Of a stretch of DNA of 45,618 nt, positions 8,131-40,504 are shown in pieces; position 1 is the first letter of the stretch; each line of letters starts with the position of its first letter. Location of the stretch: the NCBI GenBank assembly GCA_029260825.1, contig JAJDCM010000176.1:1-45618 (forward strand), written 5' to 3'. A program made the position numbers and the translations under genes. The stretch comes from Planctomycetota bacterium. Lineage in GTDB: Bacteria; Planctomycetota; JACOTG01; JAJDCM01. Under the pieces are notes generated by a model. It worked only from the letters and a program-made list of their open reading frames with translations, was not told the origin of the DNA and did not search any database.

Positions 8131-9119
8131 GGCTTTGACCTCTCCTGCTCCGAGACCGCTACCTCGGCCAAACGGTCCGAATCTCCTCCACCAAACGTGA
8201 TGAACCACAGGAGACGCACCTTCCAGGCTGCCTCGGTGGACTCGACTCCAAACAGCCCCAACAGGAGGGAGAGCTGACTCCGATCCGGGTCATTCGAGTA
8301 GGAGAAGATCAGAGGAATGGTGAAATCTGAAAGCTCCTGGGCACGGCTCGAAACCACCGCCGAAATCTGATGCTTCTCCCCCTCCCGGTACAGGGTCAAG
8401 AGAAGCTCGGCCTTCTCGTCCGCCGCCCGAATTTCGTCAAGAAGAGCCTGGGGGTCGTCAATGCTTCGATCATCAACGTGGGAGATGAGATCTCCAAACC
8501 GAATCCCGGCCATTCGAAAAGGACTCGACAGAGAAAGACCGACCACCACCGCCCCCGCTCCCGGCGCAAGGCCAACTCGCCGGGATTCGACTTCGGTAGG
8601 GGTTCGCACGACAACTCCAACTCGTTGCTCCTCCCGGATCCGCTCCACCTCTTCCCGATCAGGAAGACGAAGCCGATCCGTGATGGCAAGCTCGGTTTCA
8701 TGCTCCACCCCGCCCCGGTCATAGACAACCCGAAGCTTTTTCCCGGCCCCCGATTCCAGCTCAAGCTTTCGCCACTGACTCTTCCACGCAAGAGCAATCG
8801 GTTCCTTCCCCGAGGGAATCACCTCGAGCAGGACATCCCCGACCGCCAATCCAGCGGCCATCGCCGGAGAATTCTCGACAATCCGGTCGACGATCAGCCC
8901 TTCCGGATCACCCACGAGCTGGTCCAGGGTCTTTCGAGCATCCTCGACATAAATCCCGGTGAACCCGCCCCGGGGCAGTTTCTCTCGCAACGCCTCGTCA
9001 TCCGGTTCGACGAAGGCTTCAAGAGGCTCCTCCAGATCGCGCAAGGGGGGCGATTCGATGGGAATAGAACTACAGCCGAAGACCAGGAGCGAGCTGATCA
9101 AGATAATTAGCCATCTCAA
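8127..9119 (-). CDS. PDZ-domain periplasmic (lipo)protein
   Basis: Two PDZ-like segments (IVENSPAMAAGLAVGDVLLEV; RMAGIRFGDLISHVDDRSIDD). The likely start is TTG at 9119-9117, giving MRWLIILISSLLVFGC (signal/lipobox-like). A GGAGGAGG SD sits 8 nt upstream. The TTG overlaps the ABC gene TGA as 'TTGA'. The alternative ATG at 9176 would add 19 aa with no signal features. Confidence 0.55.
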   Translation of the reverse strand: MRWLIILISSLLVFGCSSIPIESPPLRDLEEPLEAFVEPDDEALREKLPRGGFTGIYVEDARKTLDQLVGDPEGLIVDRIVENSPAMAAGLAVGDVLLEVIPSGKEPIALAWKSQWRKLELESGAGKKLRVVYDRGGVEHETELAITDRLRLPDREEVERIREEQRVGVVVRTPTEVESRRVGLAPGAGAVVVGLSLSSPFRMAGIRFGDLISHVDDRSIDDPQALLDEIRAADEKAELLLTLYREGEKHQISAVVSSRAQELSDFTIPLIFSYSNDPDRSQLSLLLGLFGVESTEAAWKVRLLWFITFGGGDSDRLAEVAVSEQERSKP

Positions 9120-10966
9120 GAAACCGACCTCCTCCAAAGTACAGCCACGGAAAGAACGATCGGGGCCAAGATCCATCCGAGCGGAACCCAGATCTCGGTA
9201 CCCGCATAGTCAAACACCGCATTACTTGCCCCCTGGGCGAGGTCTGCATACACACGCAGGAACGACGTGTCTCCCAGCGGCGTCGGTAAGTAGGCGGTGG
9301 GAAGCCATTTTTCGACCTCAAATGAACGTGCGATCGTCCGGGACAAATCGAGAGCCAGGAGTCCTCCCAGGCAAAGCCCAAGAGCCGAAGCAGCCCCCCT
9401 GGTTACCGAGCCAAAAAGAAAACCAAGAGCTGCCAGCGACAGAAGCGGAAGGATCGGAGAAAACACCGCTCGTCGAAGCTCTGGCCACAGCTCCTCGGCC
9501 GGAACAAGAGGAAACTCCTCACCGTTTGGAAGGATCTCGACCACTCCGGAAAAATCAAGCACCGATGCCGATGCCAGAAAAGAGGCACCTGAAAGGAGGG
9601 CGTAACTCAAAAGGGCAAAGAAGAGAACCGAGAGCACCTTGCCGACAACGAATTGAAGCCTGCCGATCGGAAGCAACATGAGATTCCGCCAGGTTCCTCG
9701 GGTCAACTCGCCGGAAATCGATTGGCTCGCAAGAGCCGCAAGAATGAGAGCACAAAAAGGAAGCGACGCCTGCAAACCCACAGCCACCCCCTCAAAGGCC
9801 GTCATGCTCGTGGCGCTGAAGAGGGATTCGCTTCCCACGTCAGCCGCGTCAGTAGCACTTGCTGCTCTTCGCCTCAAGATGGCAAAAACCGCCAGGAGTG
9901 CTGGCAACGAAATCAAGAGAGCCCGACCCAAGGTGAACGCCCGGCGCACGTCATGGGAAAAGGCCCGGAAAATCGGTTGTCTGGGTGCCAGGCGGGCGGG
10001 CGGTGTGTCGCGCAAGTCGGAAGCTACCGGGGATTGCGCTTCCCGACCACCTGAAGGAGCCACGGAAGGCTCGACGAATCGAAGATAGATCTCCTCGAGG
10101 GTTCTTTCCTTCGGAGCAAACAGCTTCACTCCAAGGCCCGCCCCGACCACCTTGCGCATACCGTCGGCGGGGGAGACCTGGTTCATGTTGAGCATCAAGC
10201 CCTCGCCGGCGACGGAGCACTGAACCCCCGCCTCGGAAAGAACCGATCGAGCCTTCAAATCATCATCCGTCTGAAGAAGATAACGATCACTCTCGACACC
10301 GATGAGCTTCTTCGTTTCCTCCTCGATGAGAAGGGATCCTTCTTTCAGGACCCCGATCCGGTTGCACAACGCCGCCACGTCGGTCAGTTGATGGCTCGAG
10401 AGCAAAACCGTCATGCCTTCATCGGTGGTGAGCTCCTTGATCAAGCGTTTCATATCCGAAAGTCCTTCCGGATCGAGACCGTTTCCAGGTTCGTCCAGAA
10501 GAAGATAGGAGGGTCGGCCGATCAGCGCCATCCCGATTCCCAGACGTTGTTTCATGCCGTGGGAATAGGAGCGCACCGGTTTTCTCCCGACCTGGGAGAG
10601 GCCCACGTGGGAAAGCAGGCGACCCGCTTCGTACCGGGTGTTTTTTCCCGGTTCGCCGGAAAGCTGAAGGAGAGTTCGCAGGTTGCGCTCACCGCTCCAG
10701 GAATCGTAAAAACCCGGAACTTCGATCAAGCCCCCCATCCGAGCCCGAGCCTCCCGGGGATGACGATGAGCATCGAACCCGTCAACCTCGACCCTCCCTC
10801 GATTCGGGCGGAGCAGCCCAAGAGCAATGCGCATCAGGGTGGTCTTTCCCGCCCCATTATGCCCGATAAAGCCGTAGCAATCCCCCGAACGCACATGCAA
10901 CGAAACATCGTTGAGGGCAACCTGATCCGAAAAGCGCTGGCTAAGCGAGATGAGTCGTAGGGACAT
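9116..10966 (-). CDS. ABC transporter, fused ATP-binding and ABC-2-type permease protein
   Basis: Begins MSLRLISLSQRFSDQVALNDVSLHV. Walker A GHNGAGKTT, ABC signature and Walker B are followed by about 300 aa with six hydrophobic segments. ATG at 10966 chosen; the track start at 10975 is a TTG. Confidence 0.75.
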   Translation of the reverse strand: MSLRLISLSQRFSDQVALNDVSLHVRSGDCYGFIGHNGAGKTTLMRIALGLLRPNRGRVEVDGFDAHRHPREARARMGGLIEVPGFYDSWSGERNLRTLLQLSGEPGKNTRYEAGRLLSHVGLSQVGRKPVRSYSHGMKQRLGIGMALIGRPSYLLLDEPGNGLDPEGLSDMKRLIKELTTDEGMTVLLSSHQLTDVAALCNRIGVLKEGSLLIEEETKKLIGVESDRYLLQTDDDLKARSVLSEAGVQCSVAGEGLMLNMNQVSPADGMRKVVGAGLGVKLFAPKERTLEEIYLRFVEPSVAPSGGREAQSPVASDLRDTPPARLAPRQPIFRAFSHDVRRAFTLGRALLISLPALLAVFAILRRRAASATDAADVGSESLFSATSMTAFEGVAVGLQASLPFCALILAALASQSISGELTRGTWRNLMLLPIGRLQFVVGKVLSVLFFALLSYALLSGASFLASASVLDFSGVVEILPNGEEFPLVPAEELWPELRRAVFSPILPLLSLAALGFLFGSVTRGAASALGLCLGGLLALDLSRTIARSFEVEKWLPTAYLPTPLGDTSFLRVYADLAQGASNAVFDYAGTEIWVPLGWILAPIVLSVAVLWRRSVS

Positions 10967-11178
10967 GGTCACCAATGTGCATCGCGAAAACCTTGAGTCA
11001 AGTGGAGCTTTTGAATCTACGCAGCAAGGGCCAATACGTTACGAGGTCTCGCCCATTCCAAGGTATGGGGGAAAGAAACCCAAAATTTGACCAGGATTTG
11101 CCCCCGACTCGATTCCCGTCCCGAATTCCGGTTACACTGCTGACTCACTCATCCGGCAGCTCCAGCTACGAGGATCCG

Positions 11179-12441
11179 ATGGCCCAAGTCACTTCTGAAA
11201 TCACCCGACTCAAGCAAGTTCTCGTTCATGAACCCGGTCCGGAAGTGGACCGGATGGTTCCGGAGATGATGGAGGAGCTTCTCTTCGACGACATCATCTT
11301 CGGCGACGAGGCCCGAAACGAACACGCCATCTTTCGAGGCGTGATGGAAACCCTGGGGATCGAGATCCTGGAGTCCCGAGACCTCTTGCAGGATGTCCTG
11401 GAGAACCCGGAGGCGACATCCTGGCTCCTTGATATCCTCGTTGGAAGCCCCGCCGGGAACCTCAAGACGCGCATGGAATCCATGCCCCCCAAGGACTTGG
11501 CCAACATGCTCATCACCGGGCTTCGACATCACCCGGAGCAGGGAGACCTCGATGCGGACAGTCTCTTTGAGATCTCCCCCGTCCCGAACTGGTGCTTCCA
11601 GCGGGACCCCCAGGTCATTCTTGGCAACGGCGTGATGTTCTCCGCCATGGCGACACCCGCTCGCTGGCGAGAAACTCTTCTCACCCGGACCATCTTTCGC
11701 TATCACCCGAGGCTCTCCTCCGTGCCGGTCATTCTCGACCCGCTTCAACCCCAGACGGCAAGGCTACTCTTCATGGGACTGAAGAGCCCCCATTTTGAAG
11801 GCGGCGACTTTCTGGTTCTTGGCAAAGACGTGGTGGCGATCGGGCTCTCGGAGCGAACGAATCGGGCAGGGGTCCAGCTCGTCGCCAAGTCCCTCTCCCG
11901 CCTCGATGATGGACCCAGATGGCTCATCGTGGTCGATCTCCCCCGAAGACGCTCCTACATGCATCTTGACACGGTCTTCAATCCGGTGGATCACAACTCT
12001 TGCCTTGCTCACGCTCCGGTCATGCTACCCGGAGGAAGTGAAGAGGCGGCCATCTTCGAGATTGACCTGAAAGACAAGAATCTTGAACCAATTCCCCGGG
12101 GGAGCTTCCTGGCAACGTTGAAGAACAGAGGCATCGACTACGAGCCGATTCCCTGCGGAGGGCCCGATCCGGTAGCTCAACAGCGAGAGCAATGGACCGA
12201 TGGATCCAACACCCTCGCCCTGGCTCCGGGAGTCGTGACCCTCTATGAACGGAACGTGCAAACGACCCACGAGCTTTCGCGGCACGGGTTCTCGGTGGTC
12301 AATGCCAAGGACGTGATCGACAAGACGGTGAAGATCGATCTTGACCATCCAAAAAGGACGTGCATCCTCCTACCCAGTCATGAGATCTCCCGGGCACGTG
12401 GTGGGCCTCATTGCCTCTCTCATCCCCTGGAGCGAGAATAG
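11179..12441 (+). CDS. arcA: Arginine deiminase
   Basis: 421 aa from the ATG at 11179 (GAGGAT SD 5 nt upstream). The N-terminus SEITRLKQVLVHEPGPE and the LLFDDIIF...ARNEH segment are ADI signatures. C-terminal GGPHCLSHPL carries the amidinotransferase-superfamily catalytic Cys. The upstream 68 codons of the track ORF lack homology. Confidence 0.8.
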   Translation: MAQVTSEITRLKQVLVHEPGPEVDRMVPEMMEELLFDDIIFGDEARNEHAIFRGVMETLGIEILESRDLLQDVLENPEATSWLLDILVGSPAGNLKTRMESMPPKDLANMLITGLRHHPEQGDLDADSLFEISPVPNWCFQRDPQVILGNGVMFSAMATPARWRETLLTRTIFRYHPRLSSVPVILDPLQPQTARLLFMGLKSPHFEGGDFLVLGKDVVAIGLSERTNRAGVQLVAKSLSRLDDGPRWLIVVDLPRRRSYMHLDTVFNPVDHNSCLAHAPVMLPGGSEEAAIFEIDLKDKNLEPIPRGSFLATLKNRGIDYEPIPCGGPDPVAQQREQWTDGSNTLALAPGVVTLYERNVQTTHELSRHGFSVVNAKDVIDKTVKIDLDHPKRTCILLPSHEISRARGGPHCLSHPLERE

Positions 12442-12501
12442 CCGCAAGCTACCCAACACAGCAATCCGATATCCTGCAACAGGTTGCAAGGAGAAACACA
12501 C

Positions 12502-12972
12502 ATGATCGAGCAAAACTGCACCACCGCAATTGAACTTCTGACCGACCGACTTCAAGACGTCCCTCTCATGATTCTTGAGCTCCCCTCCGATCGACTTTCG
12601 GAAAAAGCGTCCCCGGAGAAATGGTCCGGAAAAGAGATCCTGGGGCACCTCACCGACTCGGCCCGAGCCAACCTGACCCGGTTTCTCGAAGCCCAACACG
12701 GAGAGGAGCCCTACGTTTCCCGGTCCTACCCGCAGGAGGCCCTGGTGAACTTAAACGGGTACCAGGACCTGACCGTCTCTCAGGTTCTCGCCCTCTGGGA
12801 GGCCTGGAACCGGGAGATCGTAAGGGTCCTGAAACTCATCCCTCAAGGAGCCCTCGGCCGGCGGATCTCCTTTGAAAACAACGACCCGGAAAAGACCCTG
12901 GGCTGGCTGATCGAAGACTATATTGAACACCTCGATCACCACCTCGCCGTCATCAAAAGCCAGGGGGACTGA
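12502..12972 (+). CDS. DinB/YfiT-like (DinB_2) family protein
   Basis: 156 aa. ATG at 12502 is preceded by AAGGAG 8 nt upstream. Carries the His-containing helical-bundle motifs typical of DinB superfamily metal-dependent proteins (GHLTDSA...IEDYIEHLDHH). Confidence 0.55.
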   Translation: MIEQNCTTAIELLTDRLQDVPLMILELPSDRLSEKASPEKWSGKEILGHLTDSARANLTRFLEAQHGEEPYVSRSYPQEALVNLNGYQDLTVSQVLALWEAWNREIVRVLKLIPQGALGRRISFENNDPEKTLGWLIEDYIEHLDHHLAVIKSQGD

Positions 12973-13029
12973 CCCGGATCATCAGGTTCATCCTTGCCAA
13001 ACCGTGTCGTCACCGGTATCCCTCTCTTC

Positions 13030-14229
13030 ATGTTGAAGCTTCTTTCCAACGCTGAGGTCTTTGCTCCCGAGCCACTGGGTCAAAAAAACCTCCTAGTCGC
13101 AGCCGGGAAGATCGTGTGGATGGGATCCTCACCCCCGAGCCCGCTGCCCTCTTCGATCGAAATCGAGGAAACCGACCTGACCGGACACCGACTCATCCCC
13201 GGGCTGATTGACTGTCACGCCCACCTGACCGGTGGCGGTGGAGAGGCCGGCTTCAAGAGCCGTGTCCCTCCCCTTGGCGTCAGTCAGTTCACCCGCGCCG
13301 GAACAACCACGGTTGTCGGAGTCCTGGGTACGGACGACATCACCCGAGGGACGGCGGGATTGGTGGCGGCCGCCCGAGGTCTTCGGGAAGAGGGACTCTC
13401 CGCATTCTGTCTCACCGGGGGCTATCACGTACCACCCGTCACCCTCACCGGAAGCGTTCGGGATGACATCGTGCACGTTGATCCCATCATCGGCGTGGGC
13501 GAAATTGCCATCAGCGATCACCGATCCAGTCAGCCGACACGAGATGAGCTTCTGCGTATCGCAGCAGAAGCTCACGTAGCCGGAATGCTCAGCGGCAAGG
13601 CGGGCCTCGTTCACCTTCACCTGGGAGATGGGGACCGAGGGCTGAAGATGATCGAAGAGGCTCTCGATCAAACCGAGCTTCCGGCACGAGTTTTTCATCC
13701 AACCCACGTGAATCGAAAAAAGAAGCTCTTCGAACAAGCCCTCGGCATGACGAAGCGGGGAGTGACGGTCGACGTCACAGCGTTTCCCGTGGAAGAAGGA
13801 GAAGATGCCTGGTCCGCGGAAGACGCGGTGGAGCGCTTTGTTCGGGCAGACCTATCTCCCCACCGATTGACGGTGAGTTCGGACGCAGGTGGGAGCCTTC
13901 CTTGCTTTGACCGGGAGGGTCAGCTTGTCCACTATGACGTTGCTCATCCCCAGGCAGTCGGCCATTGCCTCCAGAAGCTCCTTTCCCGGGGGCTTCCCCT
14001 CGAGGTGGTGCTCCCCTTCTTTACCTCGAACGTCGCCGAACAGTTTCGCTTCGAGCATAAAGGTCGAATCAGAGTGGGAGCCGACGCCGACCTTGTTGCT
14101 CTCGATGCCAAAGCGTTTCCAGGCCATGTGATGTGCGCAGGCGAATGGCACGTTCGCTCGGGAATCCTTGCCCGCAAGGGAATGTTTGAAAAAGACAAAA
14201 CCAATTCTTCCGGAGCTCATCGTGAATAA
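13030..14229 (+). CDS. iadA: Isoaspartyl (beta-aspartyl) dipeptidase
   Basis: Begins MLKLLSNAEVFAPEPLGQKNLLVAAGKIVWMG, followed by the amidohydrolase HxH metal site (IDCHAHLTGGGGE). Length of about 400 aa is typical of IadA. Start ATG at 13030; the track start at 12994 is a TTG. Confidence 0.8.
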   Translation: MLKLLSNAEVFAPEPLGQKNLLVAAGKIVWMGSSPPSPLPSSIEIEETDLTGHRLIPGLIDCHAHLTGGGGEAGFKSRVPPLGVSQFTRAGTTTVVGVLGTDDITRGTAGLVAAARGLREEGLSAFCLTGGYHVPPVTLTGSVRDDIVHVDPIIGVGEIAISDHRSSQPTRDELLRIAAEAHVAGMLSGKAGLVHLHLGDGDRGLKMIEEALDQTELPARVFHPTHVNRKKKLFEQALGMTKRGVTVDVTAFPVEEGEDAWSAEDAVERFVRADLSPHRLTVSSDAGGSLPCFDREGQLVHYDVAHPQAVGHCLQKLLSRGLPLEVVLPFFTSNVAEQFRFEHKGRIRVGADADLVALDAKAFPGHVMCAGEWHVRSGILARKGMFEKDKTNSSGAHRE

Positions 14230-15031
14230 GAGAGGTTTTATTGTTCCCATCGGAGGCGCGGAAGAAAAGGTTCGCGGAAGATCGATCCTTCGTCACTTCA
14301 CTGAAATCTGTGGAGGGGAGCGAGCAAAAATCGCCATCATCCCGACCGCATCCAGCCTTCCGGACAGCGGACCTCGGTACGAAGAAGTGTTCAAAGACCT
14401 GGGAGTTCAGGAAGCCACGTCTCTTCCTTTTGAGTCGAGAGCCGACTGTGCCCGAGAAGATCTTCTCTCGGTGCTGCGGGAAGCCGACGGCGTCTTTCTT
14501 ACCGGCGGGAACCAGCTCAAGCTCTCGACCACCTTGGGTGGGACTCCTGTTTCCGAGATCCTTCGGGAACGGAATGCCACTGGACTCCACGTGGGCGGGA
14601 CTTCAGCCGGCGCCGCCTATCTCTGTGAACACATGATCGCCTGCGGAGAGGAAGGCCCGACTCCTCGCCCGTCCAGCGTCACTCTGGCCCCTGGCCTTGG
14701 GCTGACCCGACATGTGATTGTTGACCAGCATTTTCGACAGCGAGATCGCATCGGTCGGCTCCTCACGGCTCTTTCCTACAATCCTTTTCCGGTGGGAATC
14801 GGTCTCGATGAAGATACGGCGGTCTTCATCGATGCCAACGATGTCATCGAGGTGCACGGTACAGGTGGACTCACCGTGGTCGACCCGCAAGACATGGAGT
14901 TTTCGTCCATGGATTCCGCAAGACCGGACGACCCGGTCTGTGTCATCGGGGTCAAGCTGCACATCCTCGTTGACAGCTGCAAATACCACCTCGTCGAGCG
15001 AACAGCGAGTCCGGCAGTTTCCCGCTCCTGA
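14222..15031 (+). CDS. cphB: Cyanophycinase (peptidase S51)
   Basis: Motifs GFIVPIGGAEEK, GGNQLKL and GTSAGAAY (Ser nucleophile) match CphB. GTG start at 14222 has GGAG 6 nt upstream and overlaps the iadA stop by 8 nt. About 269 aa. Confidence 0.8.
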   Translation: MNKRGFIVPIGGAEEKVRGRSILRHFTEICGGERAKIAIIPTASSLPDSGPRYEEVFKDLGVQEATSLPFESRADCAREDLLSVLREADGVFLTGGNQLKLSTTLGGTPVSEILRERNATGLHVGGTSAGAAYLCEHMIACGEEGPTPRPSSVTLAPGLGLTRHVIVDQHFRQRDRIGRLLTALSYNPFPVGIGLDEDTAVFIDANDVIEVHGTGGLTVVDPQDMEFSSMDSARPDDPVCVIGVKLHILVDSCKYHLVERTASPAVSRS

Positions 15032-15069
15032 CGAATCCCCCCGAACGTTTTTTAAAAGCGAGACCCATC

Positions 15070-16293
15070 ATGTCCCTTGATCTAGATTTCGTCCGCGCTC
15101 AGTTCCCGGCCCTTTCCTCGACGGATTGGGTCTATATGGACAATGCGGGAGGATCCCTCACCCTCAAACGAGTCGCGGACCGGGTCAGCGATTACCTTCT
15201 CACCACGAGCGTTCAGCACGGAGCAAGTTACGAGATTTCAGCAAGGGCCAAAGAGCGCCTGGAAGAAGCACGCGGTTCGGTAGCAAAGCTCTTTCAAGCC
15301 CGGGAATCGAGGGAGATCGTCTTTGGTCCGTCCTCGACCGTGTTGCTGAAATTTCTTGCACTCGCCATGAAGAGTCAGTTTTCGCCCGGAGATGAGGTCA
15401 TCGTCACGAACGTTGACCACGAGGCAAACATCGGCCCCTGGGTTCATCTTGAAGAAGCTGGAGCCAAGATCCGGTTCTGGAACGTTAACCCTGAATCCTT
15501 GCGCCTTGAAACCAAGGATCTCAAAAATCTCCTCTCTTCAAAAACCCGTCTCGTATGCGTCACCCAGACCTCAAATGTTCTTGGAACAATCGAACCCATT
15601 CAGGAATGGTCAAAAGCGGTTCACGACGCAGGTGCCCAGATCTGCATCGATGGAGTCGCCTTTGCCCCTCATCGCCGAATCGATGTGAAAAACTGGGACG
15701 TGGATTACTACGTGTTCAGCCTCTACAAGGTCTACGGGCCACACATGGGAGCCCTCTACGGGAAAGCAGAGCGGCTTCTTGCCCTCGACAGCATCGGACA
15801 TTTCTTCGTGGGAAAAGAGAAGATTCCCGGGAAGCTGGAACCCGGTAATCCTACCTATGAAATTGCCTACGGATGCGGCGGTATCGTTGATTACCTGGAA
15901 GAACTCGGAAACAGGTGCGATCCTTCCGGGTCCGATCCCCTGACGGCCGCATTCGATCACATCGCGGCCCACGAAGAGATTCTGAGCGCTCGGCTTCTTG
16001 CGTTTCTTACTTCCCGACCCACGATCACCGTGATCGGATCGAAGGTTGCTGATCGTGCCGTGCGCGTCCCCACCCTCAGCTTCACCGTCGCGGGAAAGAG
16101 CTCCAAAGAAATCGTCGAGTCGGTGGACGGGCACAAGATCGGAATTCGCTTCGGTGATTTTCACGCCCACCGGCTGATCAAAGACCTTGAGTTATCATCC
16201 ACGAACGGGGTCGTTCGGGTTTCCCTTGCCCACTACAACACCGTGAAGGAAGTCGATCGACTGGTGGAAGTGCTGGAGAAGCTCGTCGGTTAA
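15070..16293 (+). CDS. Aminotransferase class V-fold PLP-dependent enzyme (cysteine desulfurase/SufS-like)
   Basis: 407 aa. Has the VYMDNAGGS N-terminal motif and the PLP-Lys region FSLYKVYGPHMGALYG, which corresponds to SufS FSGHKxxGPxGxGxLYG. Confidence 0.65.
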   Translation: MSLDLDFVRAQFPALSSTDWVYMDNAGGSLTLKRVADRVSDYLLTTSVQHGASYEISARAKERLEEARGSVAKLFQARESREIVFGPSSTVLLKFLALAMKSQFSPGDEVIVTNVDHEANIGPWVHLEEAGAKIRFWNVNPESLRLETKDLKNLLSSKTRLVCVTQTSNVLGTIEPIQEWSKAVHDAGAQICIDGVAFAPHRRIDVKNWDVDYYVFSLYKVYGPHMGALYGKAERLLALDSIGHFFVGKEKIPGKLEPGNPTYEIAYGCGGIVDYLEELGNRCDPSGSDPLTAAFDHIAAHEEILSARLLAFLTSRPTITVIGSKVADRAVRVPTLSFTVAGKSSKEIVESVDGHKIGIRFGDFHAHRLIKDLELSSTNGVVRVSLAHYNTVKEVDRLVEVLEKLVG

Positions 16294-16640: not shown

Positions 16641-17879
16641 ATGAAGAATCGTAAGTACTCCATCTGTTGTTTGATTGTGCTTCTCTTTCTAGCGGGCGCG
16701 GTCGCACCACCGGCTCGGGCAGTCATCCCCATCCTTGATGGTCTGGATGGCCCCTGCTGTCTCCCCGCTCAGGTCAATCTCCCCCAGTTTCCTCCCATGG
16801 TGCTGGACAGCAAGTACGTCTGCTGGCGAAACTGCGGCCCCGGACTCTCCGGAAACGTCAAGGCCACGTTGACCCCGGTACCAGCCGCCTGCGGGATTTA
16901 TCTCCTGCGCTACACGGTCACGAATCAGGGCGGAAACTTGACCGCCTGGTCCGGTACTCTCGTCATGACCTACTCCAGGACATGGCTCGAAGCCAGGGTA
17001 GATCCTGCCAACCCGGACATTCAGATCTGGCGATTCCTCTTGAATGGAGACCTCAAGGTTTCAAACGAGCTCATCGATCGTTTCGGCAACAACACCTGCG
17101 TGGTTGCGCCCTGCGCCCCCGTTTTCAACCGCAACATCCACGTGTCCGGCTACATCGACTACGCTCAGGATTGCAACACCGGCCAGTTCGAAATCGCCTA
17201 TGCTCTCGACCACGATTGCGATCTCTACGAACATCAGAGCGGTTTCAGTTGCCGCCAGGGAAACTACCACTCCAATCAGTCCTACTCGTGGGTCGGACCT
17301 TCCGCCGGATTCCAGTGTGAGCCCGGTCTCCCGGCTGCCGATGGACCTGTCTTCTGCGAGGCATTCCGCAACTACAACTTCAACATGCCGCTGAACAATA
17401 TCTGCGAGACCGAACAGCCCATCCTGCAGGGGGCCATTCAAACAGAAGCAGAATTCTGCCCCTGCACTTCGGTACCTGCGGCCCCTCAATACAAACTCCA
17501 GCAGTACGGAGCGATGACCGCTTGCAACAGCCTCTCGAACTCCGTCAACGTGGATGTCTTTCCCGGACTCCTTTCCAAAAGCATCGGCTTCTGGACGGAT
17601 CCCGCGCGCTATCCCGGACCCGAGCTATTGCACCTGGAACGGAGCATGGCGGATTACGTCGATGGCTGCAGCCAACAAGGCTCCATCCGACATTTCCGGG
17701 GCGTGATGACCCAGGAGGGCTATTTCACTTACAAGCTGACTCCCGCGGGGTTCCTTCCTCTTCCTCCCAGAATGCTCGATCTTGGGGACGCCACCTTGCC
17801 CAACATGAACGGGCAGCCTCTCATCGGAAAGCGCACCATCTCCGAGCGAATGAAGTACTTCTGGATCGACTTCTTCTAG
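16641..17879 (+). CDS. Hypothetical secreted cysteine-rich protein (no family recognised)
   Basis: Strong SD AAGGAGG 8 nt before the ATG at 16641. Signal peptide MKNRKYSICCLIVLLFLAGAVAPPARA. More than 20 Cys in 412 aa, including CC, CxxxC and CPC pairs. It is an isolated gene with its own terminator. Confidence 0.6.
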   Translation: MKNRKYSICCLIVLLFLAGAVAPPARAVIPILDGLDGPCCLPAQVNLPQFPPMVLDSKYVCWRNCGPGLSGNVKATLTPVPAACGIYLLRYTVTNQGGNLTAWSGTLVMTYSRTWLEARVDPANPDIQIWRFLLNGDLKVSNELIDRFGNNTCVVAPCAPVFNRNIHVSGYIDYAQDCNTGQFEIAYALDHDCDLYEHQSGFSCRQGNYHSNQSYSWVGPSAGFQCEPGLPAADGPVFCEAFRNYNFNMPLNNICETEQPILQGAIQTEAEFCPCTSVPAAPQYKLQQYGAMTACNSLSNSVNVDVFPGLLSKSIGFWTDPARYPGPELLHLERSMADYVDGCSQQGSIRHFRGVMTQEGYFTYKLTPAGFLPLPPRMLDLGDATLPNMNGQPLIGKRTISERMKYFWIDFF

Positions 17880-18033: not shown

Positions 18034-19011
18034 ATGAATCCACTGCTCAAGGTCCTACTCCTCTGCGCACCCGCCTTCGCGCTGGGTGCCGTTGCGGCAA
18101 CCGTACTTCGCCCGGCGCCGGTCATGCCCCCTCTCAATCAAGAAGAAGCAGGGGCCTCATCGATCGACGAAGCATCCAGAGAAAAAATGGAGCAGAAGCG
18201 AAAGAAGGAGTTGCTGCTACTCAAGGAAGAGAATGCTCGCCTCCTGATGGAAATTCATCGACTCCGATCCCAGCTGCACCAAGAAACTGAAGATGACAGG
18301 GATGAAGATGACCGGGAAAAACCTTCCACTCCGAATCCAGGTCAACTCGATGTCGCCTCCTCCCGTCGATTCGACGACTCCTCCGACACGACAGAGCTGA
18401 GACCGACTCTGCTGTGGCTACGAGAACTCTCGCCGGACCGGTTCGGCGACTTGACGGCCCAGGAACTCCTCAACATGGGAGAGCTTGATCTTTCCGGTCT
18501 CGAGCTAAGGGCCGAAGACATCGCACACCTGATGCACTTCGAGTCTCTCCACAATTTGAATTTGCGAGAGACCAACATCACCGATGAAGCACTTGAAGAA
18601 CTTCAAGACATCGACAACCTGAAGACACTCGGTCTTCGACAATCCAACATCACCGACGAGGGGCTTTCCCACTTGACGAATCTGGATAGTCTTCGCGAGC
18701 TCGACCTGAACACGACCGGGATCACCGATGAGGGCATCGCCCACCTTCAGGAGATGTCGAACCTCCGCTCCCTTCGGCTCAACTACACCCGGATCACAAA
18801 CGACGGTCTATCTCTCCTGACAGATCTGAATTCCCTGGAGCGCCTTGATCTTTGGGGGACCGCCATCACCGATGCGGGCATGTCTCACATCTGGGACCTT
18901 CCCGCCCTGAGACACCTTGAAATCGGAGCCACATCCATCACCAAGGAGTGGGTCACCCGGTTCAAGGAAGCTCACCCCAACTGCACGGTAAGAAGTCCTC
19001 ATGGTGATTGA
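18034..19011 (+). CDS. Membrane-anchored leucine-rich-repeat (LRR) protein with coiled-coil region
   Basis: ATG at 18034 gives MNPLLKVLLLCAPAFALGAVAATVL (signal/anchor), followed by a charged coiled coil. Six or more LRRs follow (LxxLxLxxTxITDEGLxHL ...). The gene overlaps the ECF sigma start by 11 nt. Confidence 0.65.
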   Translation: MNPLLKVLLLCAPAFALGAVAATVLRPAPVMPPLNQEEAGASSIDEASREKMEQKRKKELLLLKEENARLLMEIHRLRSQLHQETEDDRDEDDREKPSTPNPGQLDVASSRRFDDSSDTTELRPTLLWLRELSPDRFGDLTAQELLNMGELDLSGLELRAEDIAHLMHFESLHNLNLRETNITDEALEELQDIDNLKTLGLRQSNITDEGLSHLTNLDSLRELDLNTTGITDEGIAHLQEMSNLRSLRLNYTRITNDGLSLLTDLNSLERLDLWGTAITDAGMSHIWDLPALRHLEIGATSITKEWVTRFKEAHPNCTVRSPHGD

Positions 19012-19546
19012 AGACTGGGGCGCCTTCTTCGAGCGATACCGTCCCATGGCCCTCCGTTTCGTTTCCGGCCTCACCCGGAATCAAGACCTTGCCGAAGACA
19101 TCTTCCAGGACGCGGCACGCTCCGTCATCGAGCGTACAGCGACCGGATCCCTCAAGTTCGAGTCCCCCGCTCATGCCCGAAACTATCTCTTTCGAGCCCT
19201 CCATAATCTTGCGATCACAGCCGCCACATCCCCCCGGTCTCGGTCGGTGCAGACGGACCAGAACCCCGCCGAGGTCGTCCTCGACACCCGGCCCGAACCG
19301 GATCAGGCCATGGCGGAAACGGAGGAAAGTCGGGCCCATGACCAGACATTGAGCACTCTTACTCACGCCCTTGAAGCTCTTCCCCAGCGGGACCGAGAAG
19401 CCCTGAGTCTGCGTTTTGGGGAGGGGCTCGGATTCAGAGAAATGGCCCAGCGCACCGGCCTTGCCATCTCCACCCTCCAGTCCCGGGTAGAGTCGGCCCT
19501 CGGAAAGATCCGAAAAAAAGTCGGAAAGACGAAGAGCGACGAGTAG
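19001..19546 (+). CDS. ECF (sigma-70 family) RNA polymerase sigma factor
   Basis: Region 2 (RYRPMALRFVSGLTRNQDLAEDIFQDA) and region 4 HTH (REALSLRFGEGLGFREMAQRTGLAISTLQSRV). 181 aa. Confidence 0.8.
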   Translation: MVIEDWGAFFERYRPMALRFVSGLTRNQDLAEDIFQDAARSVIERTATGSLKFESPAHARNYLFRALHNLAITAATSPRSRSVQTDQNPAEVVLDTRPEPDQAMAETEESRAHDQTLSTLTHALEALPQRDREALSLRFGEGLGFREMAQRTGLAISTLQSRVESALGKIRKKVGKTKSDE

Positions 19547-19592
19547 TGTGAGTTAGAAACCGTCCCATCGAGGCAAGAGGTGAACGAGAGAC

Positions 19593-23404: not shown

Positions 23405-23548
23405 CCAAACTCCCTGCGTTCCAGGTTTTCTCGAGAAAGTCTCGGAAACTTCGCCTCTCCCAGGAAACAAGGAGTGAGAGCCGGAACCATCGGGCAAATC
23501 GACCATCAGCCAGGAGCCAGAGGCATCCTGAAATCAGGAGGGTGAATC

Positions 23549-35689: not shown

Positions 35690-35916
35690 AAAGCTGGAAA
35701 TCGTCCGGCTCGATCCCCCAGCGAAGGCAAATGTCACTCCCCACGGGTCGGAGAGCGTCCAAGAGAATCGAGAAGAGGAGAAACAAGGGTATAGGACCCT
35801 CTTTTCAGGTCAAAGACCTTCTTCATCACGATCCACTGCTTAGGGTAGAATGCGGACAATTCGTCCAGCACTCAAAAGTCCATTGCAAATGACCCACACT
35901 ACTCGAGGTGGCAACC

Positions 35917-38766
35917 GTGAAGACCCTGGAAACCTCCGTCTATTTCGGCCCCAGCCTGTATGCACATTTCCCCGTCATTCGTTTGACCCTGGATCTGGGC
36001 GCGCTGGAAGAATGGCCTTCCGCAAAACTGGGTTCCGATTTCACCTCGAATCTCATCGACAGCCTTCCCGGCCTCAAAGAACACGGATGCTCGTACGGGG
36101 AACCCGGTGGATTCGTGAGGCGCCTCACCGAAGACGACGGAACCTGGTTGGGTCACGTGCTCGAACACTGCGCGATCGAGCTCCAGTGCGTCGCCGGAAT
36201 CGACGTCACCTTTGGCAAGACCCGATCTACCGGAGACCCGGGCTGCTATCACGTTGTCTACGAGTACGAACAGGAAGAGGTCGGGCTGGAAGCAGGAAAG
36301 CTTGCCCTGTTACTTCTTGACTCCCTCCTTCCAGAAGAACTTCAAGACCCAGGACTCCGACCCGATGACTGGACGTTCGCGGAAGAGCGGGACGAGTTCA
36401 TCCGGTTTGCTCAGCGTAGAGCTCTTGGACCCAGTACATCCTCTCTCGTCAAGGCCGCACGGGAGCGGGACATTCCCTGCCTCCGACTCAACCGCTACAG
36501 CCTGGTTCAACTCGGCCATGGGATCCTCCAGAAGCGAATCCAGGCCACCGTCACCGGAGAAACCCGGCATATCGCGGTCGATATCGCTTCTGACAAGGAA
36601 GAAACCAACAAGATTCTCGGTGATCTTGGGCTTCCGGTTGCCAGACAACGGCTCGTTTATGGGGAGCGGGAAGCGGTGCGGGCGGGCCGACGTATCGGTT
36701 ATCCCGTGGTCGTAAAACCGCTGAACGCAAACCACGGCCGGGGCGTGTCCACCCGCTTGACCGAAGAAGAGCAGGTCGCCAAGGCATATCATCAGGCAAG
36801 AGAACACAGCCGCACCGTCATCGTAGAGAGTTTTATCGAAGGCTTCGATCATCGCATGCTCGTCGTGGATGGAAACCTCATCGCGGTTTCTCAGAGAATG
36901 CCGGGCCATGTTAAGGGCGACGGAAAGCACACGATCGAAGAGCTCCTTGAAGAAACCAATCAAGATCCGCGTCGAGGAATCGGACACGAAAAGGTCCTGA
37001 CGCGCATGGATCTGGACCATCAAGCACTTCGACTCCTCGAACAAAACGGGTACGACCAAACGAGCGTCCCTCCCGAGGGAACCGTTGTCTTTCTTCGGTC
37101 CACAGGAAACCTGTCCACCGGTGGAACCGCCATCGACAAGACCGACGTCGTCCACCCGGACAATCGGGAAATGGCGATGCGCGCCGCCAAGGCAATCGGC
37201 CTTGACGTGGCGGGAATCGACTTCCTGACCACCGACATCTCTCAATCTTTCAAGGAAACAGGAGGCGCAATTTGTGAAGTCAATGCGGCTCCCGGCTTTC
37301 GCATGCACGTGGCTCCAAGCGAGGGAGAACCTCGAGATGTGGCCGGCCCGGTCATGGACATGCTCTTCCCCCCCGGAACACCCACCCGGATTCCCATTGC
37401 CTCTATCACCGGAACCAATGGAAAAACAACCACCACTCGCATGCTCGCCCACATCTTCAAGATGACGGGAAAAACCGTGGGAGTTGCCACCACAGATGGA
37501 GTGTATATCGGTGGACACCGCACGGTTGAAGGTGACATGACCGGCCCGTTTGCTTCCCGCATGGTGCTTCGCGATCCCTCGGTTGAGGTCGCTGTTCTGG
37601 AAACCGCGCGAGGTGGTCTCCTTCGCCGTGGAATGGGTTATCGAAGCTGCAACGTCGGTGCTTGCCTCAACGTTCAGGCCGATCACCTGGGCCTTCGTGG
37701 CGTCAACACCCTGGACGATCTTGCCGCGGTGAAGAGAGTTGTCGTTGAAATAGCAAAAGATACAGCCGTTCTCAACGCGGACGACCCCCAGTGCCTGCGA
37801 ATGGCCGACTATACAAAAGCCAAGCAGGTCTGCTATGTGACCATGGACCACAACCACCAGCTCGTCAAAGAGCACATCGGCGCCGGTGGCATGGCCGTGG
37901 TTCTTGAGCAAGGGATTCAGGGCCAGATGATCACCCTCTATGATCAGGGGGCCCATCTTCCTCTCCTCTGGAGTCATCAGATTCCGGCAACTCTCGAGGG
38001 TCGGGCCGTTCACAACGTTCAGAACGCCATGTTCGCCGCGGGGATGGCTCATGCCATGAGCACCTCTCTCGAAGACATCCGCCACGGATTGCAGACATTC
38101 GACACCACCTACTTCCAGGCACCCGGCCGCCTGAACGTCTTTGACGATCATCCTTTCAAGGTTATTCTCGACTACGCCCACAACCCTGCCGCCATCAACA
38201 GCATGGTGAACCTCACGCAAAAGCTCGATCCCAAGGGACGAAAAATTGCCGTGGTTGCGATGCCAGGAGACCGTCGAGACGAAGACATCGCCGAGACTGC
38301 CCGTCTCATTGCCGGTCAGTTCGATCATTACATCTGCCGCCGGGACGATTCCCTTCGTGGAAGGGAGCCGGATGAAGTCCCTCGACTTCTACAAGATGGA
38401 CTCCTCTCCGCCGGTGTCTCCAAGGAGCAGATCCAGATCATTCCTGAAGAACACGAGGCCGTAACCACGGCTCTTCAGATGGCAAGAAAGGACGATCTCG
38501 TTCTTCTCTTCGGCGACAATATTGATCGCTGCTGGGAACAAATCACCCAGTTCCGACCCGAAGACGGAGCGACCTCAACCCCTGACGAACAATCTACTTC
38601 ATTGTCTGGTTCTGGTTCCCCCACCCCCTGGGTGACCGATGATGCTGGTGCATCACTTCGAGTCCCCAAAGAAGCCAAGGGGAGTACCTCTCCCGGAGGA
38701 AGTAGCGAAACAAACTGGGTGAGAGATGAGAGGGGCGTGCGGCTCGCCCGGGAGTCCGATGACTGA
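35917..38766 (+). CDS. cphA: Cyanophycin synthetase (CphA1-type: N-domain + ATP-grasp + Mur-ligase-like domain)
   Basis: N-domain MKTLETSVYFGPSLYAHFPVIRLTLDL. ATP-grasp core (IGYPVVVKPLNANHGRGVS ... EVNAAPGF). Mur-ligase P-loop ITGTNGKTTTTRMLAHIF plus the ETARGGLLRRG and LNADDP motifs. GTG start at 35917 with GAGG 9 nt upstream; an alternative GTG is at 35908. An 80-aa low-complexity C-terminal tail is present. Confidence 0.85.
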   Translation: MKTLETSVYFGPSLYAHFPVIRLTLDLGALEEWPSAKLGSDFTSNLIDSLPGLKEHGCSYGEPGGFVRRLTEDDGTWLGHVLEHCAIELQCVAGIDVTFGKTRSTGDPGCYHVVYEYEQEEVGLEAGKLALLLLDSLLPEELQDPGLRPDDWTFAEERDEFIRFAQRRALGPSTSSLVKAARERDIPCLRLNRYSLVQLGHGILQKRIQATVTGETRHIAVDIASDKEETNKILGDLGLPVARQRLVYGEREAVRAGRRIGYPVVVKPLNANHGRGVSTRLTEEEQVAKAYHQAREHSRTVIVESFIEGFDHRMLVVDGNLIAVSQRMPGHVKGDGKHTIEELLEETNQDPRRGIGHEKVLTRMDLDHQALRLLEQNGYDQTSVPPEGTVVFLRSTGNLSTGGTAIDKTDVVHPDNREMAMRAAKAIGLDVAGIDFLTTDISQSFKETGGAICEVNAAPGFRMHVAPSEGEPRDVAGPVMDMLFPPGTPTRIPIASITGTNGKTTTTRMLAHIFKMTGKTVGVATTDGVYIGGHRTVEGDMTGPFASRMVLRDPSVEVAVLETARGGLLRRGMGYRSCNVGACLNVQADHLGLRGVNTLDDLAAVKRVVVEIAKDTAVLNADDPQCLRMADYTKAKQVCYVTMDHNHQLVKEHIGAGGMAVVLEQGIQGQMITLYDQGAHLPLLWSHQIPATLEGRAVHNVQNAMFAAGMAHAMSTSLEDIRHGLQTFDTTYFQAPGRLNVFDDHPFKVILDYAHNPAAINSMVNLTQKLDPKGRKIAVVAMPGDRRDEDIAETARLIAGQFDHYICRRDDSLRGREPDEVPRLLQDGLLSAGVSKEQIQIIPEEHEAVTTALQMARKDDLVLLFGDNIDRCWEQITQFRPEDGATSTPDEQSTSLSGSGSPTPWVTDDAGASLRVPKEAKGSTSPGGSSETNWVRDERGVRLARESDD

Positions 38767-40504
38767 ATCGCCCCCCCTCCTCATGAAGGATTCCCGTCGA
38801 CTCACCGGACCCAACATGATCTGGGATCATCCCGGTGCGGTCATCGACGTCGCGGGAGAAGATTCCAGCATCGAATCTCTCATTGATGCCTGGAAAACCG
38901 AAGCCCGGCGTATCCTGAAAGCTGTCGGCTTTGATCAAGAAACAACTGGCGTTCGTCGTTTCCAGGGAGGAGCGAGCCTGGCTCTTAGTGCTCCGATCGA
39001 TGCCCTTTATGCAGCCACCGAGGTGAATGAGTGGGCGTTTCACTCCGCTTGCAAATCTCTCGGCTTCGACACCGGCGAAACCCCCGTTCCTCCCATTGCC
39101 GAAGCTACCGATCAGCTTCGCTCCATCATCGAAGAGGAACGCAACCCAGCGCTCCTCGCCCTCCGGCAGGCAGCCGTTGACAATCAAGTTGCGTTTCTTA
39201 CCGATGATGACGAAGCATCGATCGGGATGGGAATCGGTTCACGTCGATTTGAAGTCTCGGACCTTCCAGATCCCAACGACCTCGACTGGTCGACCATTCA
39301 TAACATCCCCGTCGCTCTTGTCACCGGCACCAACGGAAAGACAACCACCGTTCGATTGCTATCCGCAATGGCAAAAGAAGCCGGTCACGTGTACGGCTGC
39401 TGCTCCACCGATGGAATCCTGGTCAACGGAAAGGTCGTTTCTCCTGGAGACTACTCGGGTCCAGGTGGCGCGCGAACCGTGTTGCGTCACCCGGATGTAA
39501 CTCTCGCCATTCTTGAAACAGCCCGGGGAGGCCTTCTTCGTCGCGGGCTCGGGGTGGGTGAGAATCCGGTCTCTTGCTCCCTCGTAACGAACATCGGAGC
39601 CGATCACCTCGGGGAGTTCGGGGTCGCCGACCTCGATGCTCTCGCCGACACAAAACTCATCGTGCGCCGGGCGGTCAAGAAGCCAGGTCGGCTCATCCTG
39701 AATGCGGACGACCCCATCCTGAGTGCGAAGGCATCCGCTCTCGATCTTCCCCTTGCATGGTTCACCCTGAAAGAAAGCCATCCGCTCGTTGAGCCTCACG
39801 TGGCACGAGGCGGAACGGCAGCCTGGATCGAAGAGAAGTGCTTCTGGCTTTCAACGGAAGGGAAGATCCAGAAAATCGGCTCGGTGAACAAGGCTCCGAT
39901 CACTTACAACGGCGCTGCCCATCACAACATGGCCAATGCTCTTTCCGCAATCTTGGTCGCCTCCCACCTGGGTCTCTCCTCCGAGGAAATCAAGGCGGGT
40001 CTTGCAAGTTTCGAGAATACACCCGAGCAGAACCCGGGCCGTGGAAATCTCTTCCACCTGGGTGGTGTCCAGATCCTGGTCGACTTTGCCCACAATCCAC
40101 ATGGGTGCGAGGCCCTCATTACCATGGCCTCCAAAATGCCCGCCGAGCGACGCCTCATCATTCTTGGTCAGGCCGGTGACCGGGACAATGAATCCATTCT
40201 CGAAATGGTTCGGGTCTGCTGGAACGCTCGCCCTGACCGAATCCTAGTGAAAGAAATGCTTCCCTTTCTGAGAGGGCGGGAACCCGGAGAGATCCCTGCC
40301 CTGATTCATCAGGAGCTCACCCGAGTCGGAGCTCCGGAAGACGCAATCGGCCATGCCGGCTCGGAATTAGAGGCGATCCATGAAGCGCTGGCCTGGGCAA
40401 AGCCGGGCGACTTGCTATTGCTCCTGGTTCACGCCGAAAGGAAGGCAGTGCTGGAGCTGATGGCGAAGTTGGAAAAAGAAGGGTGGAAGCCCCGACACGA
40501 CTGA
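38759..40504 (+). CDS. Truncated cyanophycin-synthetase paralog: CphA N-domain fused directly to a Mur-ligase-like domain, with no ATP-grasp domain
   Basis: MKDSRRLTGPNMIWDHPGAVIDV aligns with the CphA N-terminus (MK...GPN.W). About 190 aa later comes VTGTNGKTTTVRLLSAMAKE (P-loop), then ETARGGLLRRG, NIGADHLG and LILNADDP, as in the CphA M-domain. No RimK/ATP-grasp motifs lie between them. ATG at 38759 overlaps the cphA stop by 8 nt; an alternative ATG at 38783 matches the CphA N-terminus exactly. Confidence 0.7.
   Translation: MTESPPLLMKDSRRLTGPNMIWDHPGAVIDVAGEDSSIESLIDAWKTEARRILKAVGFDQETTGVRRFQGGASLALSAPIDALYAATEVNEWAFHSACKSLGFDTGETPVPPIAEATDQLRSIIEEERNPALLALRQAAVDNQVAFLTDDDEASIGMGIGSRRFEVSDLPDPNDLDWSTIHNIPVALVTGTNGKTTTVRLLSAMAKEAGHVYGCCSTDGILVNGKVVSPGDYSGPGGARTVLRHPDVTLAILETARGGLLRRGLGVGENPVSCSLVTNIGADHLGEFGVADLDALADTKLIVRRAVKKPGRLILNADDPILSAKASALDLPLAWFTLKESHPLVEPHVARGGTAAWIEEKCFWLSTEGKIQKIGSVNKAPITYNGAAHHNMANALSAILVASHLGLSSEEIKAGLASFENTPEQNPGRGNLFHLGGVQILVDFAHNPHGCEALITMASKMPAERRLIILGQAGDRDNESILEMVRVCWNARPDRILVKEMLPFLRGREPGEIPALIHQELTRVGAPEDAIGHAGSELEAIHEALAWAKPGDLLLLLVHAERKAVLELMAKLEKEGWKPRHD

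Follow-up and report, generated by a model that had tools for sequence, protein, structure and literature searches.

A stretch of 45,618 nucleotides (positions 1 to 45,618, forward strand) of contig JAJDCM010000176.1 from a Planctomycetota bacterium (assembly GCA_029260825.1), here called the window over its whole length, carries at 11179-16293 a block of five genes on the + strand. Among them are iadA and cphB, for isoaspartyl dipeptidase and intracellular cyanophycinase, and upstream of this pair stands arcA, a gene for a probable arginine deiminase (ADI). We lean slightly towards the reading that a known cyanophycin mobilization pair, iadA-cphB, has come to lie behind arcA and is probably co-transcribed with it, the arginine it releases being deiminated, with a DinB_2-superfamily gene and a gene for a pyridoxal phosphate (PLP) enzyme as passengers. 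The genes iadA and cphB overlap, their pairing recurs in many related loci, and the active sites of CphB, IadA and ArcA are conserved. The arginine deiminase coupling in this lineage-specific arrangement is plausible but unproven. As such, the finding is a modest one: a new organizational variant of a known cluster, in one lineage, with a function that is not demonstrated.

Organization of the five-gene block

Each of the five open reading frames (ORFs) has a strong family match, and the set of co-oriented genes described in an earlier note on this DNA is confirmed. The features of the block are as follows.

10976..11178, no strand: divergent intergenic region of 203 nt between an ABC gene (- strand) and arcA, presumed promoter region
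11179-12441, + strand: ArcA-like arginine deiminase gene, 420 amino acids (PF02274, 240 bits against a cut-off of 22.8)
12304-12363, + strand: insertion in the ArcA clade (residues ~376-395) relative to the ADIs of P. aeruginosa and S. pyogenes
12502-12972, + strand: DinB_2-superfamily gene, 156 amino acids from the ATG, the ORF opening with TTG at 12484 (PF12867, 43 bits)
13030-14229, + strand: iadA, isoaspartyl (beta-aspartyl) dipeptidase, 399 amino acids (TIGR01975, 390 bits, cut-off 331)
14222-15031, + strand: cphB, intracellular cyanophycinase, 269 amino acids, GTG start (TIGR02069, 254 bits, cut-off 127)
15070-16293, + strand: class-V fold PLP enzyme of the TIGR01976 (VC1184) family, 407 amino acids (PF00266, 227 bits; TIGR01976, 399 bits, cut-off 352)

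The 203-nt region is presumed to be the promoter region because it is the sole sizeable non-coding stretch 5' of the block; on its other side lies a divergent gene (9116-10975, - strand) encoding an ABC ATPase fused to an ABC-2 permease. As read in the sequence, the arcA ATG at 11179 has GAGGA 5 nt upstream, and the junctions along the block measure 60 nt (arcA/DinB), 57 nt (DinB/iadA), -8 nt (iadA/cphB) and 38 nt (cphB/PLP), with a further 347 nt between the PLP stop codon and the next gene, orf430 (16641). The best start of the DinB_2 gene is the ATG at 12502, which has an AAGGAG ribosome-binding site 7 nt before it. The 8-nt overlap between iadA and the GTG-initiated cphB, to which the earlier note had drawn attention, is GTGAATAA, and GGAG stands 6 nt before the GTG at 14222. 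Because of this overlap, iadA and cphB are very likely translated from one mRNA.

The arrangement is also found in two Logan contigs from run SRR15505514, which are 100% identical to the window and together cover all of the junctions. One spans the ABC gene, arcA, the DinB_2 gene and the 5' part of iadA, and the other spans the 3' part of iadA, cphB, the PLP gene and orf430. They meet inside iadA with an overlap of just 18 nt (window 13332-13349), an assembly break point that is possibly a result of strain variation or a drop in coverage; across the join, the IadA ORF is intact and full length, and it matches the IadA model from end to end. The starts of cphB, the DinB_2 gene and iadA are reproduced by independent gene calls on the Logan contigs, and an NCBI-sourced protein record gives a 399-amino acid IadA whose start matches 13030.

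Identity of the cyanophycinase and the isoaspartyl dipeptidase

Judging from its sequence, the S51 protein is a true cyanophycinase, as the earlier note had proposed, and not a peptidase E (PepE). It scores 254 bits with TIGR02069 (equivalog cut-off 126.6) against 22.8 bits with the PepE model NF003642, and it aligns with Synechocystis CphB (3en0) at 185 bits. The motifs GTSAG, DQH and DED are identical to those of 3en0, and Ser132, His174 and Glu201 are all retained. Across 25 homologues (62-74% identity), the corresponding residues S128, H170 and E197 do not vary, and neither do the positions of the beta-Asp-Arg pocket: Q98, D168, Q169, R174, R176 and R179, which correspond to Gln101, Asp172, Gln173, Arg178, Arg180 and Arg183 of 3en0. 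We take these residues to be the catalytic triad and the substrate pocket of the Synechocystis cyanophycinase, roles that reportedly go back to work by Law et al. in 2009. No signal peptide was seen on CphB, the N-terminus of which leads directly into the conserved core, and the enzyme is therefore assigned to the intracellular, cytoplasmic type.

IadA can likewise be considered a bona fide isoaspartyl dipeptidase, in agreement with the earlier note. In addition to its score with TIGR01975, it matches solved IadA structures at 438 bits (5xgw) and 435 bits (Leucothrix mucor, 8dqn). The HAH...GGGGEAGF motif aligns with these structures, and in the metal-binding HxH motif the window sequence 'DCHAHLTGGGGEAGF' is aligned with 'DSHAHITGGGGEAGF' in solved IadA.

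Conservation of the iadA-cphB pair

The neighborhoods of the genes were surveyed from two sides. The ArcA side comprised 80 species-representative genome loci with 51-59% ArcA identity and flanks of up to 10 kb on each side (Acidobacteriota, Eisenbacteria, Krumholzibacteriota, Planctomycetota, Gemmatimonadota and others), and the CphB side comprised 80 metagenome loci with 59-66% CphB identity. Among the CphB loci with enough room, 31 of 57 have iadA immediately 5' of cphB in the same orientation, 49 of 50 have cphA1 directly downstream of cphB, and 21 of 24 have a truncated cphA-like gene after cphA1. The canonical architecture is iadA-cphB-cphA1-cphA2', and within the five-gene block only iadA-cphB is conserved. 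Clustering of cphB with iadA has been documented in 21% of the genomes that have both genes, and in 75% when cphA1 is absent, while clustering of cphB with cphA1 was reported as 81%; the survey in question (Sharon et al. 2023, Sci Rep 13:8314; PMC10206079) makes no mention of arginine deiminase.

In the window, the two synthetase-type genes lie ~21 kb downstream of iadA-cphB and had been overlooked in the earlier note.

35908..38766, + strand: cphA1, cyanophycin synthetase, likely start GTG at 35917 (TIGR02068, 1158 bits, cut-off 850; PF18921, ATP-grasp and Mur-ligase domains)
38726..40504, + strand: cphA2', truncated cphA-like gene, 592 amino acids (TIGR02068 positions 477-854 only, 363 bits, below the cut-off)

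The presence of cphA1-cphA2' indicates that the organism makes its own cyanophycin, and the position of the two genes at 35.9-40.5 kb shows that the window has the canonical iadA-cphB-cphA1-cphA2' cluster in rearranged form. The cphA2' gene overlaps the 3' end of cphA1 by 41 nt. Its product has a Mur-ligase M domain only, preceded by an N-terminal stretch of ~190 amino acids that carries no assignment, and has no ATP-grasp domain; its PDB matches are the M domains of CphA1 structures, and a homologue in locus L175 is 53% identical. Pairs of cphA1 with a truncated cphA gene are widespread in bacteria that are apparently not cyanobacteria. CphA2 has been described as a cyanobacterial enzyme (PMC10206079), and cphA2' may represent a widespread CphA2-like partner outside of the cyanobacteria.

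One real relative was found, contig L173 (Logan run SRR16126149), with identities to the window of 54% (ABC), 74% (ArcA), 63% (IadA), 73% (CphB) and 41% (BlaR). Its gene order is ABC ... arcA(+) - GH42-like(-) - iadA-cphB(+) ... infC - class-V enzyme (25% identity) ... blaI-blaR, and its iadA and cphB overlap by 4 nt. In these two diverged genomes, arcA lies within 1.6 kb of iadA despite several gains and losses of genes around them. Two other candidates for arcA-near-cphB relatives, P0128 and P0143 (69% CphB identity), have neither arcA nor iadA upstream of cphB.

A divergent clade of probable arginine deiminases

The arcA product is a probable arginine deiminase, as the earlier note had called it, from a divergent and mostly stand-alone clade outside the curated models. 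It can be aligned with the S. pyogenes and P. aeruginosa ADIs and keeps every catalytic and substrate-binding residue: C412, H262, D264, E207 and D143 correspond to Cys406, His278, Asp280, Glu224 and Asp166 of the P. aeruginosa enzyme, and N137, F140, R162, R226 and R407 to Asn160, Phe163, Arg185, Arg243 and Arg401. We take the former five to be catalytic and the latter five to bind the substrate in the P. aeruginosa ADI, a list said to derive from Galkin et al. in 2004-2005. His405 of P. aeruginosa is likewise kept, and the active-site positions are invariant or nearly so in 24 clade members. Compared with the ADIs of these two species, the clade as a whole has an insertion of ~20 residues before the loop with the catalytic Cys. 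The window enzyme is 58-63% identical to hundreds of homologues of ~421 amino acids. Together these form a large group of mostly solo genes missed by curated ArcA models.

Two members of the clade are found in canonical operons, which supports a real ADI function. In L003, a metagenome-assembled genome (MAG) of Planctomycetaceae, the order is OTC...arcC-arcA, where OTC stands for ornithine carbamoyltransferase; in L080, a Gemmatimonadetes MAG, it is arcC-arcA, and in both loci carbamate kinase lies directly upstream of arcA on the same strand. Across the 80 ArcA loci, the carbamate kinase gene (located by motif scan and tblastn) is adjacent in these 2, is found on the other strand at a distance of 3-7 kb in 19 and is missing from the flanks of 59. 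Contrary to what the earlier note implied, an arcA without adjacent arcB or arcC is the norm for this clade and not a peculiarity of the window. The 19 loci in which carbamate kinase is encoded at that distance, downstream of arcA and in opposite orientation, among them L004, L011, L024, L029 and L031, are mostly labelled Acidobacteriota and display conserved synteny but no operon.

Transcription of the block

Several sequence features that bear on transcription were examined. On the + strand, no terminator-like site was found in 11179-16200, and the number of such sites overall is not above chance (5 found against 7.1 expected). The RNA folds of three internal junctions are no stabler than those of shuffled sequence (z +0.19 to +0.53). 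Within the 203-nt region upstream of arcA there is no sigma-70-like match and no Rfam family, and across the window as a whole neither an Rfam family nor a tRNA was found. When 12-mers were compared, with at most one mismatch, among the regions upstream of the window arcA, the L173 arcA and iadA, and cphA1, the matches were scattered and none was recurrent, nor was there an ARG-box-like palindrome among them. Taken together, the junctions, the lack of terminators and the unstructured gaps are compatible with one transcript from the 203-nt divergent region, but are no proof of it.

The PLP enzyme and the DinB_2 protein

The earlier note called the PLP enzyme SufS-like, an assignment that does not hold. 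With the SufS model TIGR01979 the protein scores 229 bits, against a cut-off of 475, and its best PDB matches are Fgm3 (9x4u, 317 bits) and UstD (7mkv, 225 bits), with SufS at ~178 bits. The position of the catalytic Cys361 of B. subtilis SufS is taken by His365, in the motif GDFHAHR. A SufS/CsdA-type cysteine desulfurase is thereby ruled out, and the sequence identifies the enzyme as a TIGR01976 member related to Fgm3 and UstD. Bacterial members of this family, for which the model is of the hypoth_equivalog type, conserve YKVYGPH and GDFH, and K220, the PLP lysine of YKVYGPH, is invariant.

Fgm3 catalyzes a retro-aldol cleavage of 4-hydroxy-L-arginine (PMC10055224), and UstD decarboxylates L-Asp to an enamine, the fate of which is addition to an aldehyde or protonation to L-Ala (PMC11976203). 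Two residues beyond the PLP lysine, the window enzyme has a Tyr in common with Fgm3, where UstD has Phe. The GntC paper (PMC10055224) proposes Tyr225 as the general base of Fgm3, and the Tyr of YKVYGPH may be its equivalent. The window enzyme shares with Fgm3 (fusaoctaxin pathway) and UstD (ustiloxin pathway) the class-V fold, the PLP lysine and the lack of the SufS cysteine. However, Fgm3 and UstD are enzymes of fungal secondary metabolism, whereas the window enzyme is a bacterial TIGR01976 member with proteobacterial orthologues in transporter-hydantoinase operons.

These proteobacterial orthologues (loci L168-L172; homologues P0246, P0264 and P0343) are 55-57% identical to the window enzyme. 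In their operon, which is conserved, the PLP gene is accompanied by genes for a GntR/FCD regulator, the binding protein and permease of a Lys/Arg/Orn-type ABC system, a protein resembling ureidoglycolate lyase, and a dihydropyrimidinase/hydantoinase that scores 741 bits (cut-off 647). From this context, TIGR01976 enzymes probably act in an amino-acid catabolic pathway that has yet to be described. The window enzyme, whose nearest characterized relatives act on aspartate and hydroxy-arginine, is an attractive candidate for substrate screening.

The DinB_2 protein matches PF12867 at 43.4 bits (cut-off 24.8) and has weak similarity to the equivalog of YfiT, a bacillithiol transferase (40 bits against 160), and to PDB entry 1rxq (E=0.12). 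Candidate metal-binding His residues can be seen in LGHL ... EHLDHH, and the protein is probably a metal-binding His-triad enzyme. Within the block, its gene is probably a passenger. A DinB gene as a regular partner of the ArcA clade was rejected, being present in 1 of the 80 genome loci (L002), with a marginal match in L019. A similarity of 17 nt raised the prospect of a decayed DinB gene between arcA and iadA of L173, and blastn and tblastn found none.

Proposed pathway and alternative explanations

In the proposed pathway, cytoplasmic CphB would cut the cell's own cyanophycin, made by CphA1 and CphA2', to beta-Asp-Arg dipeptides, which IadA would hydrolyze to Asp and Arg; the action of ArcA on this Arg would yield citrulline and ammonium. 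The OTC and carbamate kinase steps would need genes elsewhere in the genome. All five genes are probably transcribed together, given that they are co-oriented with short junctions, and the transcript would start in the divergent region upstream of arcA; we infer both this co-transcription and metabolic channelling from IadA to ArcA. Such an arrangement would have arisen when iadA-cphB became detached from cphA1 in one lineage and was placed behind a normally solo arginine deiminase gene.

A number of observations weigh against this proposal. ArcA falls below the curated cut-offs, with 300 bits for TIGR01078 (equivalog cut-off 489) and 309 bits for NF002381 (subfamily cut-off 414). As the earlier note had observed, no arcB or arcC is present: searches with tblastn (L003 and L073 sequences) and with Pfam on large ORFs found neither OTC nor carbamate kinase in the 45.6-kb window, and tblastn with the same sequences gave no match in L173. 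The gaps of 57-60 nt are long enough for internal promoters, and no regulatory motif is common to the regions upstream of arcA and iadA in the window and L173. In the flanks of the 80 ArcA loci there is no IadA or CphB homologue (0 of 59 for those with at least 3 kb of downstream flank). Conversely, arcA, like the DinB and TIGR01976 genes, is found in 0 of the 80 CphB loci, including 0 of 34 with at least 3 kb upstream of cphB and 0 of 18 with an adjacent iadA and at least 1.5 kb beyond it. The linkage is as rare as the earlier note had said. The nearest other homologues of ArcA, at 63% and 61% identity, are encoded by solo genes whose surroundings are unrelated. Lastly, in L173 an opposite-strand gene of 390 amino acids (GH42-like) separates arcA from iadA, which makes their co-transcription impossible there.

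With the adjacencies of arcA, the DinB_2 gene and the PLP gene not conserved, and arcA of L173 cut off in this way, the five-gene functional cluster put forward in the earlier note is not upheld as such. The main alternative, possible if doubtful, is that the juxtaposition is neutral: arcA, the DinB_2 gene, iadA-cphB and the PLP gene would be separate units left co-oriented by rearrangement, insertions would have split an ancestral iadA-cphB-cphA1-cphA2', and any read-through would have no selected metabolic meaning. The lack of adjacency in 80 loci from either side fits this view, as do the differing genes between arcA and iadA, DinB (+) in the window and GH42-like (-) in L173. So do the L173-type TIGR01976 orthologue (59% identity, same two samples), which is found beside an AHSA1 gene on a separate contig, and the arcA of L082/L084 (63% ArcA identity), which adjoins an orf430 homologue instead. 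The other recurrent neighbors of the CphB clade (QueF-like, RibA-like, TetR and ABC/HlyD), besides cphA1 and iadA, point the same way, with none in arginine or aspartate catabolism. On the other hand, neutrality sits less well with the short junctions free of terminator-like structures, with the arcA-iadA proximity kept in two genomes through several gains and losses, and with the biochemical logic by which the product of IadA is the substrate of ArcA.

In a further alternative, which we consider improbable, the operon includes the PLP enzyme as a functional part: it would be a C-beta/C-gamma lyase or decarboxylase whose substrate is an amino acid derived from cyanophycin, so that Asp and Arg are both disposed of. 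Examples would be L-Asp to L-Ala and CO2, as in the UstD side reaction, or cleavage of a gamma-substituted arginine derivative, as by Fgm3. The closest characterized homologues do act on Arg and Asp skeletons, the Tyr after the PLP lysine is common to Fgm3, merely 38 nt separate cphB from the PLP gene, and the proteobacterial orthologues stand beside Lys/Arg/Orn-type ABC binding proteins. However, the PLP gene is found in 0 of 80 CphB and 0 of 80 ArcA loci and occupies a different locus in the nearest relative, the hydantoinase/ureidoglycolate-lyase-like operon of its orthologues points to another substrate, and the block contains no arginine hydroxylase. We give little credence to the block as a selected, self-contained operon for complete cyanophycin disposal, with the PLP enzyme acting on Asp or an Arg-derived intermediate. 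If the PLP enzyme did belong to the operon, this would be the first physiological role for the widespread "cysteine desulfurase-like" TIGR01976 family. As for an S51 protein that is a PepE-type alpha-aspartyl dipeptidase, or a locus that scavenges external cyanophycin, membership of the S51 family and the nearby ABC transporter gene could be cited in favor. Both ideas are effectively refuted by the TIGR02069 score, by the full set of cyanophycinase specificity residues, by a CphB that lacks a signal peptide, by an ABC gene that is a divergent ABC-2 ATPase-permease fusion with no substrate-binding protein, and by cphA1 and cphA2' in the same window.

Relation to known systems

The placement of iadA-cphB behind arcA can be compared with several described systems. 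In the cyanophycin clusters of Sharon et al. 2023 (PMC10206079), as here, the genes for the two catabolic enzymes are adjacent on one strand and the genome also has cphA1, but in the window cphB is 21 kb from cphA1, and arcA, the DinB_2 gene and the TIGR01976 gene flank iadA-cphB. Cyanobacteria-scavenging bacteria have a cyanophycin utilization locus which, as far as it is described where Ben Hania et al. 2017 is cited in PMC10206079, also holds a cyanophycinase gene together with iadA. Those loci, on the same description, have transporters and belong to genomes without cphA1, whereas the window has no adjacent uptake system, no signal peptide on CphB and a cphA1 gene. With arcABC(D) operons the window shares a homologous ArcA with an identical active site, and two members of its clade lie in arcC-arcA operons, one with OTC. 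It differs in having no arcB, arcC or arcD, in the succession of arcA by DinB-iadA-cphB, and in an ArcA that has the ~20-residue insertion and scores below the cut-offs.

In cyanobacteria, the arginine dihydrolase ArgZ/AgrE couples cyanophycin breakdown to arginine catabolism. The ADI pathway has already been proposed for cyanophycin-derived Arg in Culexarchaeia and in Clostridium ljungdahlii (PMC9723716, PMC13241827). In all of these cases, as is proposed for the window, Arg from cyanophycin is degraded by an enzyme that modifies the guanidino group. Physical gene linkage is not reported for them, whereas the window has arcA 0.6 kb 5' of iadA in the same orientation, and the window enzyme is of the deiminase type, not an ArgZ-type dihydrolase. 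The idea of a route from cyanophycin to the ADI pathway has so far rested on pathway reconstruction and co-expression, not gene linkage. If arcA is co-expressed with iadA-cphB, the block would be a compact genetic illustration of the proposed entry of the nitrogen and energy of cyanophycin into the ADI route outside of cyanobacteria. Nothing here would surprise a specialist, and the more interesting leads are the TIGR01976 family and the pair of cphA1 with a truncated cphA gene.

Other genes of the window

Two further genes in the window have counterparts at related loci.

16641-17879, + strand: orf430, 412 amino acids, carries a signal peptide and matches nothing in Pfam or NCBIfam; looks Cys-rich
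34253-35689, + strand: BlaR1-type M56 sensor-peptidase gene, immediately upstream of cphA1

A homologue of orf430 (47% identity, L082 11323-12546, - strand) directly adjoins arcA in convergent orientation in the P0002 (63% ArcA identity) contigs. The genes arcA and orf430 may be ancestral neighbors, with DinB-iadA-cphB-PLP lying between them in the window. The BlaR1-type gene of L173 (18998-20822, 41% identity) is preceded by a blaI-like repressor gene and lies downstream of iadA-cphB.

The 21 kb between iadA-cphB and cphA1 contain the PLP gene, orf430, and genes for a leucine-rich repeat (LRR) protein, an ECF sigma/anti-sigma pair, and CHAT and S8 proteins, together with aldehyde dehydrogenase, cydAB, an SPFH protein and blaR1. 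At 19001-26629, an ECF sigma factor and a zf-HC2/TPR anti-sigma factor are followed by a TPR-CHAT protein of 1022 amino acids and a subtilase of 1026 amino acids with FG-GAP repeats. A second CHAT protein is encoded at the end of the window (43731-45578), and several FG-GAP proteins are encoded upstream of the block (4808-8208).

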